Source: a virus
Lineage: Duplodnaviria > Caudoviricetes
IMG/VR virus record: IMGVR_UViG_3300033067_000350
Location: 1 to 59,916 of that record
Length of the DNA stretch: 59,916 nt
Direction: 5' to 3' (one strand)
Part shown: piece by piece, positions 24,029 to 26,532 of the stretch
How the letters are laid out: every line of letters starts with the position of its first letter
Numbering within the stretch: position 1 is the first letter of the stretch
Notes under the pieces: model-generated
Seen by the model: only the letters and a program-made list of their open reading frames with translations
Told to the model about the DNA's origin: nothing
Databases searched by the model: none
Position numbers and translations under genes: made by a program

Positions 24029-24454
24029 TTACAATTCAATGATCTCTAGACCAGCCAGCTTCAATATCTCAAGACCTCTGGTGTCATGCTCTGTCACGTG
24101 CTTAAATGCGACAGCATCAATAACGCCAAACAGGTTATGAGCATCAACAATGACTTGGGCACATCTAGTGCACGGGCTGTAATTACACAGCAGCAAGAAT
24201 TTGGACTGCCTATCCAGCAAGTTCATCAAGGCCATCACTGCTCTGGGCTCAGCATGGGCACACCCGCAGTTGCCTCTCTCCCCAGTACACTTGTAGTTTG
24301 GGGTGGGCCCGTTTGTTGCCCTGACCACCTCATCATAAGTCTGACCGTTCCAGATGAGGATTGCGCAACCTACAGACTTCCTCAAACACCCGGATTGGTT
24401 AGCTTCAGCCCATGCTGTCAACTCAACCAATTTCTCTCTCAAATCGTGAATCAT
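24029..24454 (-). CDS. dCMP deaminase-like protein
   Basis: S.C.R..VG, HAE, SPCTRC. Confidence 0.88.
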   Translation of the reverse strand: MIHDLREKLVELTAWAEANQSGCLRKSVGCAILIWNGQTYDEVVRATNGPTPNYKCTGERGNCGCAHAEPRAVMALMNLLDRQSKFLLLCNYSPCTRCAQVIVDAHNLFGVIDAVAFKHVTEHDTRGLEILKLAGLEIIEL

Positions 24455-24455
24455 G

Positions 24456-24983
24456 TTACTTCCTTGGGTCAACTAATAGTTTGAGCCTTGAGTACCAGCA
24501 ATCCAACCACATACTCAGAGTATCATCTGATGGATACTTACCATCCTTAACATCGTAGATGAAATCACTACTCACTACATTGTTTTGAGACAAGGCACAA
24601 AACATGTCGTTGGCGGTAACTATATCGTTTGTCGAGAATGATTGTGGTTTGCCTTTAGACAGGGCTGCGTCATACCAATCCTTATCTGAGGTATGCATAA
24701 CAACTACCACAGACCCCAGAGTGTATAGCCTACCCTCAATGATTCTTAATGCTGAAGTTGATATAGCATTTTTATGCCAAACCATACCCCCAATATGGAA
24801 TCTGTCTTGTACAGCAAACAAACTGAACATGTCTGAGTAGTCGTTGAAGAAGTCAAACGTACTATTGGGTCTGCTCATATGAGCATACCTAATTGGGTAT
24901 TTGCCATCTTCAGCAGCCAATTCCACTAGTCTCTTGGCAGCAGTTGTTTTACCCAGTTCGTCAGCACCTTCTATGATCAGCAC
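24456..24983 (-). CDS. dNMP (thymidylate-type) kinase
   Basis: IIEGADELGKTT and QDRF motifs; GTG start after GAGGAG. Confidence 0.8.
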   Translation of the reverse strand: MLIIEGADELGKTTAAKRLVELAAEDGKYPIRYAHMSRPNSTFDFFNDYSDMFSLFAVQDRFHIGGMVWHKNAISTSALRIIEGRLYTLGSVVVVMHTSDKDWYDAALSKGKPQSFSTNDIVTANDMFCALSQNNVVSSDFIYDVKDGKYPSDDTLSMWLDCWYSRLKLLVDPRK

Positions 24984-26026
24984 CAGTTGCTCCTCATGTA
25001 TACGGACATTGCTGGATTTGAGATACGCTCCAACCAATTCTGCTTATCTGCCGCCCACTTATGGGCTACCATGGCATACACCTGTCCCAACAAAGAGTCT
25101 TCAGGCAGATCAATATGCGGAGATGGTGTATACCCATTAGTCATCATTCTCTCGGCTATCACCACAGATCTGGCCGCATCAGAGATGTTCATATTGTGAG
25201 GGCAGTACACCAGATCAGTGTAGCGAGGGTGTGGATCATTCCAAGCCTCAATAGCCTTGTCCCTATTACGATCATACAAATGCAGAGACATAGCCCCGTG
25301 CTGGTACCAGCCAATCCCAACTCCCACTGCCTCAGCAATAAGCCTTTGAATACAAGTGAAGCACCAAATATCGTGAGGCAATCCCAACCACACATCATTG
25401 GATCTCATATTAGCAAACAAATTCAGTTTGCCATCTCTCAAAATGAAGTTGAGAGTCAAAGTGCATGGGATGTCCTTCTTGTCCCCGCTAGTTGCCTTAG
25501 CAAGATCCAATCCGGCATCGTACAGAGCCAATACAGCTTGACGAGTGTTGGGGTCTGTCTTCAACATTCTAATAATGGAAGCAACTGCGGTGTATCCGTC
25601 AAATGTTCTAGCCATCCTATACCCATAAGCCCCATGGGCATATAGCACCTTAGTCTTTTGAAATTTGGTTGCAATCTCTTGATCGCTCAAATTGGCGTGT
25701 GAGACCATATCAGCATATTCGCATCCATGAGAATCAACGTGCAACTCTGCTTCATTACAGAACCTAGCATATTGTGGGGCGTATTTGCTGATCCTTGAGA
25801 TAGTCCTCTGTCCACTGAGGAACCAAATCAGTTCAGCAGCTGCATAATGAGGGCTCATCTTGCGTACTGGATTGAACATGAAATTGTTCATTGGGTTAGC
25901 CAATCTGGCTACATAACCCAAGTATTCATAAGTTGAGCCATCTCTAGAGGGCAGCACTGACCCCTCAGTCTCAATGTGGTGAATAGCATCAATCCAAAGA
26001 TCATCCAAATTGTGAAACGTCTTCAT
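24977..26026 (-). CDS. Thymidylate-synthase homologue (pyrimidine hydroxymethylase-like; dCMP-type Asp)
   Basis: AELIW, GAYG.R, TRQA, DIPCT, MRSNDVWLGLPHD, SLHLY. Confidence 0.88.
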   Translation of the reverse strand: MKTFHNLDDLWIDAIHHIETEGSVLPSRDGSTYEYLGYVARLANPMNNFMFNPVRKMSPHYAAAELIWFLSGQRTISRISKYAPQYARFCNEAELHVDSHGCEYADMVSHANLSDQEIATKFQKTKVLYAHGAYGYRMARTFDGYTAVASIIRMLKTDPNTRQAVLALYDAGLDLAKATSGDKKDIPCTLTLNFILRDGKLNLFANMRSNDVWLGLPHDIWCFTCIQRLIAEAVGVGIGWYQHGAMSLHLYDRNRDKAIEAWNDPHPRYTDLVYCPHNMNISDAARSVVIAERMMTNGYTPSPHIDLPEDSLLGQVYAMVAHKWAADKQNWLERISNPAMSVYMRSNWC

Positions 26027-26532
26027 GGTTGCTCCTGTTCCAAATTGCGGTGCCAATTCTTTGCCGACCTGCCCAAACTTATTGCCCTAGCAATATTGGG
26101 CGGTCTGTAATTTAGCCCCTTGTTCTTCATTCTGGGGTCTGCCTTAGACCTCACTGATTTGGACATATTACTGGCGTGGACTTCTTCATCAACATACTCG
26201 CTGGGTATGCCGTATGTAACGTCAGTACCAGTTACTACATATCTCAAATCAGCAGTACCGTCAGCAAGAGCAATCTCATCTCTAACAGCTAGGGCATGAA
26301 TAACCTCACTCAACTCTTCAACCATCAGGTGGGTTCTGTAAAGCCGTTCATCACCATGATGCTGCGAGTTTAATCCAGGTTGTTTGCATTTTTCAGCAAT
26401 TTCTGCTAGGTGCTTACAAATGTCCAATAGAATGCTGGTGTCGTCAAGCACTCTATTGGACCTTAAATCCATATTGCATGGGAACCCATGCTTCTTATGG
26501 AATGATTCCACATCAGTATTCATCGTCCGCAT
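26023..26532 (-). CDS. MazG-like all-alpha NTP pyrophosphohydrolase
   Basis: V..FH, EELSE, ADG.ADLRYV, EVH.SNMSK, K...Y.PP. Confidence 0.85.
   Translation of the reverse strand: MRTMNTDVESFHKKHGFPCNMDLRSNRVLDDTSILLDICKHLAEIAEKCKQPGLNSQHHGDERLYRTHLMVEELSEVIHALAVRDEIALADGTADLRYVVTGTDVTYGIPSEYVDEEVHASNMSKSVRSKADPRMKNKGLNYRPPNIARAISLGRSAKNWHRNLEQEQP

Follow-up and report, generated by a model that had tools for sequence, protein, structure and literature searches.

The subject of this report is a block of four coupled genes at positions 24029-26532 of the IMG/VR virus record IMGVR_UViG_3300033067_000350 (Duplodnaviria; Caudoviricetes), and its relation to a set of DNA hypermodification genes further downstream. 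The window, that is, the whole stretch of DNA analyzed, is the entire record of 59,916 bases with a CheckV completeness of 91%, and the minus strand carries every long open reading frame (ORF) in it. Genes of the block encode a MazG-like protein, a thymidylate-synthase homologue, a P-loop protein and a zinc deaminase, and they overlap or almost abut, as in translational coupling. The likely ATG of the synthase homologue (26026) is preceded by AGGAG and overlaps the stop codon (TGA) of the MazG-like gene as ATGA. The P-loop gene has a likely GTG start at 24983, just ahead of the stop of the synthase homologue, and the likely ATG of the deaminase (24454) lies one base past the stop of the P-loop gene. 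The four genes and the polymerase gene that follows them are:

26023..26532, minus strand: MazG-like nucleoside-triphosphate (NTP) pyrophosphohydrolase (PF01503, phrog_671)
24977..26026 (ORF open to TTG 26056), minus strand: thymidylate-synthase homologue, predicted deoxycytidine monophosphate (dCMP) 5-hydroxymethylase (PF00303)
24456..24983 (ORF open to TTG 25037), minus strand: P-loop protein with a nucleoside-monophosphate (NMP)-kinase-like predicted fold, candidate deoxynucleoside-monophosphate (dNMP) kinase
24029..24454 (ORF open to TTG 24472), minus strand: dCMP-type zinc deaminase (PF00383, phrog_174)
21710..23929, minus strand: family-A DNA polymerase, directly downstream of the four-gene block (blastp to M6 gp62)

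The polymerase is 25% identical over 727 aa (blastp, E 5e-39) to gp62 of phage M6, which is annotated as a DNA polymerase. A blastn search with the block against 50,697 phage records gave zero matches. Scans of IMG/VR with single window proteins also gave zero matches, and alignment-based scans were required to find relatives.

The synthase homologue matches PF00303 with 82.6 bits (cut-off 24.3), and equivalents of the catalytic Cys146, Arg166 and Asp169 are all there. Residue columns were defined by a MAFFT alignment with E. coli ThyA from NC_000913. At ThyA positions 143/146/166/169/177 the window enzyme has D/C/R/D/D, with Thr at 147; the Leu143 column is gapped in the alignment, and its Asp (in KDIPC) was assigned by counting three residues back from the catalytic Cys. 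The motif MRSNDVWLGLPHDIWCF lies within the minus-strand ORF 24977-26056, and the signature codons are:

25472-25474, minus strand: Asp codon at the Leu143 position
25463-25465, minus strand: catalytic Cys codon
25394-25396, minus strand: GAT codon at the Asp169 position
25370..25372, minus strand: Asp codon GAT at the position of ThyA Asn177 and T4 gp42 Asp179, residue 229 of the ORF

The original prediction, made from the sequence alone, that this enzyme carries the Asp which specifies cytosine was correct, since the GAT codon falls in the same column as ThyA Asn177 and the Asp of T4 gp42. The residue pattern of T4 gp42 is identical to that of the window enzyme, including Asp at the 177 column and Thr147, and a HMMER alignment places the window Asp opposite an Asp of MilA. 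An Asp at position −3 from the catalytic Cys is also found in T4 gp42, SPO1 gp29 and M6, and an Asn in Xp12 and PaMx74. SPO1 gp29 and the homologues of M6, ViI, phiW-14, PaMx11, Epa5, Sonora, PhiJL001 and CN1 have Asn at both 177 and 147. Asn177 marks the hydroxymethylases that act on deoxyuridine monophosphate (dUMP); it is absent from the window enzyme and present in 9 of 9 homologues checked from the thymine-hypermodifying phages, in which hydroxymethyl-deoxyuridine (hm-dU) is made, so that none of these shares the Asp.

The residues at these positions were recently related to enzyme specificity. The change of Asn177 to Asp was reported to give dCMP preference, Asp or Glu in place of Leu143 to accompany hydroxymethyl products through water access, and Asn in place of Asp169 to mark 5-hydroxy-dCMP synthases (Lee et al. 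2026, PMC13326640). The association with cytosine modification in viral contigs was strongest for positions 177 and 147 (Yang et al. 2021, PMC8670742), and an exchange between Asn and Asp is cited in both papers as switching the preference between dUMP and dCMP. The window enzyme has the "modified" state of PMC8670742 at 177, and at 147 it is the same as T4 gp42. By the rules of PMC13326640, Asp at 177 and 143 together with a retained Asp169 would place it in the class of dCMP hydroxymethylases and not among the methylases or hydroxylases. Among solved proteins, the antibiotic-pathway enzyme MilA is the closest. It is the best PDB sequence match (E 4.7e-25; best thymidylate synthase 3.8e-15) and the best fold match (E 1e-19, TM score 0.72-0.83) of an AlphaFold2 model with a predicted local distance difference test score (pLDDT) of 93.2; thymidylate synthases follow from E 1.4e-14 with TMq 0.50-0.58. 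The synthase homologue is very probably a dCMP hydroxymethylase. Two other assignments were considered and rejected, that of a 5-hydroxy-dCMP synthase because Asp169 is retained instead of the diagnostic Asn, and that of an Xp12-type dCMP methyltransferase on account of the different residue ahead of the catalytic Cys and of the wide separation of the two enzymes in the tree.

Asp occupies position 177 in all of the best 120 of 1047 homologues with E <= 1e-5 and in 80 of 80 IMG/VR relatives; both sets were retrieved with Asp-type queries and hence describe conservation within the family rather than the overall frequency of Asp. In a maximum-likelihood tree of 51 synthase homologues, rooted at the midpoint and containing some long branches, the window enzyme falls within a 24-row clade that is entirely of Asp type (support 98/93), apart from the Asn-type dUMP hydroxymethylases. 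The latter (SPO1, ViI, phiW-14, M6, PaMx11 and metagenomic relatives) form one clade (100/98) that is nested among Asp-type sequences, with a pair of Asp-type sequences on long branches as its sister (97/95). T4 gp42, E. coli ThyA and members of the Xp12 type are all distant, on long branches. A recent Asn to Asp mutation in an M6-type enzyme was rejected as the origin of the window residue, the enzyme being placed in a separate and uniformly Asp clade. Given the nesting, the tree suggests, tentatively in view of its midpoint root and long branches, that dUMP hydroxymethylases arose from within the Asp-type (cytosine-type) enzymes.

The MazG-like protein matches PF01503 with 36.9 bits (cut-off 21.3) and phrog_671 at 3.3e-18; among PDB sequences the closest is that of the MazG-like DR2231, at a weak E value of 4e-4. 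In tblastn a gene of MW202657 shows 36% identity to it over 133 aa, and a region close to the synthase gene of the 5-methylcytosine phage PaMx74 shows, more weakly, 36% over 70 aa. Comparison with PaMx11 gp62 gave short local blastp matches only, which are weak. For the P-loop protein, no Pfam family scores above cut-off, and neither PHROGs nor PDB sequences give a match. Foldseek relates its AlphaFold2 model (pLDDT 89.1) to guanylate, adenylate and thymidylate kinases, with E values between 1e-4 and 4e-3 and TM scores of only 0.39-0.55. Residues G24, D26, G29, K30, D78 and R79 are invariant in 21 homologues, and in many relatives the homologues adjoin an Asp-type hydroxymethylase. From the modeled fold, candidate dNMP kinase is a reasonable label. 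The coupling of the synthase gene to a MazG-like pyrophosphatase, a dNMP kinase and a dCMP-type deaminase, as originally proposed, is thus upheld in its overlaps and, by Pfam, in its first and last members, and the kinase label stands by predicted fold only, with no sequence family behind it.

The deaminase matches PF00383 with 36.8 bits (cut-off 25) and phrog_174, and the HAE and PCxxC zinc motifs are present in its translation. Its sole PDB match is 4p9c (E 1.5e-4), which was deposited as a deoxycytidylate deaminase. In a tree of 37 deaminases, from which the M6 deaminase was left out because the motif filter missed it, the window protein is found in a divergent, lineage-specific clade of 13 rows (100/99), every one from a genome with an Asp-type hydroxymethylase; the deaminases of Xp12 and PaMx74 are in the other half of the tree. 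As a test of specificity the tree was uninformative, as it showed a lineage-specific clade only. Deaminase activity on 5-substituted substrates was described as polyphyletic and without a simple signature (bioRxiv 10.1101/2024.12.05.627091).

Downstream of the polymerase, on the same strand, is a second group of genes:

13895..14512, minus strand: class-I S-adenosylmethionine (SAM) methyltransferase (Methyltransf_31 34 bits, Methyltransf_25 32.8 bits, others)
12802..13734, minus strand: PF18723 protein (Pfam name HMUDK_hel), homologue of M6 gp55 and PaMx11 gp50 (PF18723 150.9 bits, E 6.4e-44)
12437-12805, minus strand: 122-aa protein between the hypermodification genes, which matches nothing
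11376-12455, minus strand: 359-aa protein between the hypermodification genes (phrog_6077, unknown function, E 1.7e-76)
10445..11008, minus strand: P-loop kinase, homologue of the 5-hydroxymethyldeoxyuridine (5-hmdU) DNA kinases PaMx11 gp49 and M6 gp54 (blastp)
9495..10448, minus strand: amino-acid:DNA transferase (AADT, formerly aGPT-Pplase clade 2; PF18724 38.9 bits, cut-off 26.2)

The original prediction assigned these downstream enzymes to the thymidine-hypermodification families, and the matches to PF18723 and PF18724 and the similarity of the kinase to PaMx11 gp49 agree with it. The kinase is 33% identical over 180 aa to PaMx11 gp49 (blastp, E 2.4e-22) and 27% identical to M6 gp54 (E 6.5e-13). 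It scores 26.2 bits against PF18748, slightly below the cut-off of 27, and has the P-loop GTNGSGKS. The roles of the M6 and PaMx11 proteins, including those of the 5-hmdU DNA kinases, are given in PMC8989533 (Table 1) and PMC5889632 (Table 3). The PF18723 protein is 31.5% identical to PaMx11 gp50 and 30% to M6 gp55 by blastp; its homologues are annotated in some records as aGPT-Pplase clade 1, and M6 gp55 was dispensable for the in vitro reaction (PMC8989533). The 359-aa protein has sub-threshold matches to SACS and HATPase_c_3 (GHKL-ATPase-like) and was detected by tblastn in 2 of 160 related loci (L040, L054), the 122-aa protein in none of the 160.

The transferase has no blastp match to M6 gp51 or PaMx11 gp46 at E 0.01. 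When aligned with gp46, it is identical at 11 of 15 active-site and DNA-contact positions, including Glu243, Thr244 and Cys247, and changed at four (His95 to Phe, Phe173 to Ser, Lys261 to Cys, Glu265 to Leu). The Cys and Glu of such transferases are essential (PMC8989533). The Glu243/Thr244 pair holds a metal that is bound to O4 of the flipped thymine (PMC11472151), and this metal is required for activity (PMC13458397). With the P-loop and catalytic residues kept, both the DNA kinase and the transferase look intact. Cultured relatives of the transferase are confined to 17 actinophage records at 23-35% identity. The nearest, at 33-35%, are from phages of Gordonia, Mycobacterium, Microbacterium and Rhodococcus, and not from M6 or PaMx11. 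Several of these actinophage transferases adjoin genes annotated as Tet-like J-binding protein or oxidoreductase; Kozie, one of the 17, lacks a synthase homologue and matches TET/JBP below threshold. Thymine dioxygenase is the function reported for phage oxygenases of this kind that are linked to such transferases and to P-loop kinases (bioRxiv 10.1101/2025.08.14.668559). The kinship with actinophages fits an exchange of kinase-transferase cassettes between very different phages.

PF00303 has one match in the whole record, and at E <= 0.1 neither ThyX (PF02511) nor a TET/JBP oxygenase (PF12851) has a match in its six frames. The statement of the original prediction that no second synthase is visible therefore holds for this 91% complete record, and the Asp-type enzyme is the sole recognizable source of a C5-hydroxymethyl group in it. 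Exactly one PF00303 match was also found in each of 56 related viral records, namely the records of the 50 closest relatives and of six loci with kinase and transferase genes.

The combination of an Asp-type hydroxymethylase as the only synthase homologue with the kinase and the transferase recurs in at least seven other viral contigs from several lineages. One of them, G005 (100% complete), has the Asp-type hydroxymethylase, MazG, P-loop protein, deaminase, PF18723 protein, kinase and transferase, again with one synthase homologue, and it is the only member of the window's own lineage in which tblastn found a kinase and a transferase resembling those of the window. Of 80 IMG/VR loci found by a search that started from the PF18723 protein, 69 carry a synthase homologue no more than 10 kb away, which is of Asn type in 61, of Asp type in 6 and truncated in 2. 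The Asp type is a minority partner of PF18723 loci, yet a recurrent one. In a separate set of 80 loci, each centered on an Asp-type hydroxymethylase, the transferase and kinase were found within 10 kb of that enzyme in 6 (L066, L069, L079, L091, L092, L095); in L079 the genes of all three enzymes are adjacent. These locus counts are lower bounds because the profile hidden Markov models (HMMs) for the kinase and transferase, which we built from the window, M6 and PaMx11, are insensitive and detected neither gene in 52 of the 61 Asn-type loci. A deaminase scores above cut-off in five of these six records; the completeness of the remaining one is 83%. No cultured phage with both an Asp-type enzyme and a transferase was identified among the actinophages matched by the window transferase or among the Lysinibacillus and ViI-like phages matched by the L079-type transferase, the synthase type of this latter group not having been checked.

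Transferases linked to Asp-type enzymes occur at three or more places in the transferase tree, interleaved with Asn-linked ones. In three of them (L069:6087-7085, L091:5363-6328, L095:7940-9001) the Glu/Thr ligands are replaced by Ser-Ser, Val-Gly and Val-Asn, respectively, and the catalytic Cys is kept. Located beside Asp-type hydroxymethylases and without these ligands, they are candidates for a changed target base. The PF18723 protein is more widely spread and was found in 18 of the 50 records of the closest IMG/VR hydroxymethylase relatives and in 9 of the 19 that are >=90% complete. One of the 18 positive records (G005) also matches PF18724 and four match PF18748, counts that may miss other clades. 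The PF18723 protein, present in these Asp-lineage records mostly without a transferase or kinase match, may have a role of its own in hydroxymethylcytosine phages.

The explanation that we favor, with a probability of roughly 45%, is that hydroxymethyl-dCMP (hm-dCMP) is made, that part of the hm-dC pool is deaminated to hm-dU, and that the latter is incorporated into DNA and hypermodified; we infer the substrates, the deamination of hm-dC nucleotides and the final base. The MazG-like protein, hydroxymethylase, NMP-kinase-like protein and deaminase would then act as one coupled block that rebuilds the pyrimidine deoxynucleoside-triphosphate pool. The hydroxymethylase would convert dCMP to hm-dCMP, and the deaminase would turn part of the hm-dC nucleotides, at the mono- or triphosphate level, into hm-dU nucleotides. 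With these the phage polymerase would replace some of the thymidine by hm-dU, and probably cytidine by hm-dC. The P-loop DNA kinase would phosphorylate 5-hmdU in DNA, the transferase would let an amino acid displace the phosphate, and the methyltransferase and the two uncharacterized proteins may tailor the product.

Phage Xp12 methylates dCMP and obtains thymidine by deamination of the 5-methyl-dC nucleotide, and B5, a deaminase of the Xp12 type, converted 65% of 5hmdCTP to 5hmdUTP in 30 minutes in vitro (bioRxiv 10.1101/2024.12.05.627091). The same neighborhood of an Asp177 synthase homologue, PRA-PH, deaminase and family-A polymerase is described there on modified-cytosine contigs. The original prediction offered two options, deamination of hm-dCMP or an amino-acid-hypermodified cytosine, and considered that either would depart from known pathways. 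For deamination this is not supported in that form, the Xp12 pathway and the in vitro conversion being precedents. Both options are still the leading ones, and the evidence leans to deamination without separating them decisively. The lean comes from the transferase, which keeps the residues for the thymine-O4 metal and whose nearest cultured relatives lie beside TET/JBP-like oxygenase genes.

Several points weigh against deamination of hm-dC nucleotides. Among 90 deaminases encoded beside synthase homologues, seven gave 5hmdU in vivo, and all seven were paired with predicted makers of 5-methyl-dCMP, not hydroxymethyl-dCMP (bioRxiv 10.1101/2024.12.05.627091), so that deaminases beside hydroxymethylases may usually spare hm-dC. 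The window deaminase bears no mark of a special function and shares its clade with relatives in which our searches found no kinase or transferase. A deaminase match is present in 37 of the 50 closest-relative records (17 of 18 PF18723-positive and 20 of 32 PF18723-negative ones) and in 8 of the 10 PF18723-negative records that are >=90% complete, and the presence of this gene thus does not discriminate between the readings. The metal-ligand argument depends on an alignment of the transferase to gp46 at low identity. Finally, at 91% completeness a gene could be missing from the record.

The second option, which we regard as unlikely though a serious contender, is that hm-dCTP replaces dCTP as in T4 and that the kinase and transferase have shifted to 5-hydroxymethylcytosine (5hmC) in DNA, with a deaminase that merely supplies dUMP to the host thymidylate synthase. 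An amino-acid-hypermodified cytosine in virion DNA, formed through a phosphomethyl-cytosine intermediate, would be its product and is likewise doubtful. The Asp signature and the set of PRA-PH, synthase, deaminase and polymerase are those of modified-cytosine contigs (PMC8670742; bioRxiv 10.1101/2024.12.05.627091), and no deaminase paired with a predicted hydroxymethylase gave 5hmdU in the screen of the latter. Most of the nine closest IMG/VR relatives of the window PF18723 protein (L125-L133) come from genomes of the Asp type: the Asp-type enzyme is within 10 kb in six, L125 and L129 lie in Asp-type records, and L132 is left unassigned. Attack of a thiolate at C6, the chemistry of the transferase, is common to cytosine C5 methyltransferases (PMC8989533), and the transferases of L069, L091 and L095, which are without the ligands for the thymine-O4 metal, indicate that the site can change beside Asp-type enzymes. 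The window transferase, however, retains these ligands along with the 11 of 15 gp46 positions, its closest cultured relatives are in systems with TET/JBP-like oxygenases, and Asp-linked and Asn-linked transferases are interleaved in the tree. The single 5-hmdU DNA kinase preparation that was tested on 5hmC DNA did not phosphorylate it (PMC6457204), and our literature search, which did not cover subscription journals, found no paper on a 5hmC DNA kinase or on phosphomethylcytosine.

The two options do not exhaust the possibilities, since the Asp enzyme may still use dUMP, alone or besides dCMP, in an otherwise ordinary pathway in which the deaminase supplies dUMP as in M6, PaMx11 and SPO1. We consider this improbable. 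Asp-type enzymes are found near kinase and transferase genes in the six further loci, and the nesting of the Asn-type clade among Asp-type sequences makes the two classes close relatives. The T4 dCMP hydroxymethylase itself has a low side activity on dUMP. The gene set of deaminase, hydroxymethylase, NTP pyrophosphatase, dNMP kinase and polymerase is also that of hm-dU phages (PMC8989533). Set against dUMP use are the Asn of all nine hm-dU-phage homologues and the invariant Asp of the 120 best homologues and 80 IMG/VR relatives, as well as the switch of preference by the Asn/Asp swap and the tracking of cytosine-modified contigs by residues 177 and 147 (PMC13326640, PMC8670742). MilA, the closest solved enzyme, was deposited as a CMP hydroxymethylase, with entries that have CMP, hmCMP and dCMP bound.

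Least probable is a lack of any connection between the two modules, in which the block would make hmC DNA only and the kinase and transferase would be relics or would use 5-hmdU from an unrecognized oxygenase ORF, a gene in the absent 9% of the genome or a host activity: the incompleteness of the record, the several module ORFs with no assigned function, the oxygenase-type sources with which this transferase subfamily works in actinophages, and the restriction of a similar kinase and transferase to G005 within the lineage, which suggests cassette acquisition, would all suit it, but six frames hold no TET/JBP or second synthase match, the complete G005 has the same gene set with a single synthase homologue, the transferase catalytic residues and kinase P-loop are intact, and the pairing recurs in other lineages.

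The window can be compared with several known systems. T4 gp42 resembles the window enzyme in its Asp177, the Asp at −3 from the catalytic Cys, Thr147 and the retained Asp169, and differs from it by a very long branch and by its absence among the 60 listed PDB sequence matches and the top 50 fold matches. The T4 hmC pathway employs enzymes of the kinds predicted for the window block, namely a dCMP deaminase, a dNMP kinase and an NTP pyrophosphatase. The window differs from T4 by its DNA kinase and amino-acid transferase and by having no phage thymidylate synthase; no glycosyltransferase turned up in the window, where no search aimed at glycosyltransferases was made. MilA, the mildiomycin CMP 5-hydroxymethylase (PDB 5jnh, 5b6d, 5b6e, 5jp9), is the best solved relative and has the aligned Asp. 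It is, however, named for a ribonucleotide and belongs to an antibiotic pathway, whereas the window enzyme is part of a phage replication operon, and the two are ~24% identical in the structural alignment.

The dUMP hydroxymethylases (SPO1 gp29; M6, PaMx11, ViI, phiW-14) share with the window enzyme the superfamily and the Asp at 143, and its genomic company has counterparts in the hm-dU phages, with a 5-hmdU DNA kinase, amino-acid:DNA transferase, PF18723 protein, deaminase and polymerase. They differ in their Asn177 and Asn147, form the separate clade mentioned above (100/98) and are 23-26% identical to the window enzyme. Xp12 and PaMx74 provide the likeness to the proposed route, as dCMP is modified first and the pool partly deaminated with no second synthase (bioRxiv 10.1101/2024.12.05.627091). 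They have Asp177 and a deaminase beside the synthase homologue, as does the window, and the Xp12 record is in Mesyanzhinovviridae, the family of M6 and PaMx11. In contrast to the window enzyme, theirs have Asn at −3 from the Cys and group with E. coli ThyA, and their deaminases are in the other tree half. The Xp12 enzyme is a confirmed maker of 5mdC, and the product of deamination is ordinary thymidine (bioRxiv 10.1101/2024.12.05.627091). The 5-hydroxy-dCMP synthases (RB69 gp48, DLP3 gp80; PMC13326640) have Asp177 and an acidic residue at 143 like the window enzyme, and differ by the change of Asp169 to Asn, which is absent in the window; no arabinosylation genes were seen in the window.

Published routes to thymidine hypermodification begin with a dUMP hydroxymethylase or a thymine dioxygenase, and many clusters of this kind were reported near a gene for a dUMP hydroxymethylase or TET/JBP (PMC8989533). 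In the window phage, as in at least seven other contigs, the post-replicative machinery is accompanied by a cytosine-type hydroxymethylase only. Our literature search, which left out subscription journals and supplements, found no paper describing an Asp-type hydroxymethylase together with a kinase and transferase of thymine hypermodification. If the favored explanation is correct, deamination of hm-dC would be a third entry route to 5-hmdU, and it would imply that both pyrimidines are non-canonical in the DNA. If instead the machinery has moved to cytosine, the class of DNA base and the kinase specificity would be ones not found in that search. A weaker form, in which hmC would replace C and at the same time hypermodified hmU would replace part of T, would also be new.

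For prediction of bases from metagenomes, residue 177 alone would mislabel such phages. The system also bears on the discovery of enzymes able to distinguish 5hmC and 5hmU, useful tools in epigenetic sequencing, and on the escape of phages from restriction and type IV systems. The genes are all short, and the explanations can be tested by the in vivo liquid chromatography-mass spectrometry assays of the cited papers.

The tailoring genes of the window differ from those of M6, which has a pyridoxal phosphate (PLP) enzyme and a radical SAM enzyme, and of PaMx11, which has a flavin enzyme and an acetyltransferase. In their place the window offers the phrog_6077 protein, the 122-aa orphan and the SAM methyltransferase as tailoring candidates, and the final base is probably not one of those described. 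As in M6 and PaMx11, the transferase gene is directly followed by one for a ribonucleotide reductase with an ATP-cone (6674-9013), and an ATP-dependent DNA ligase is encoded further upstream at 16502-17347.

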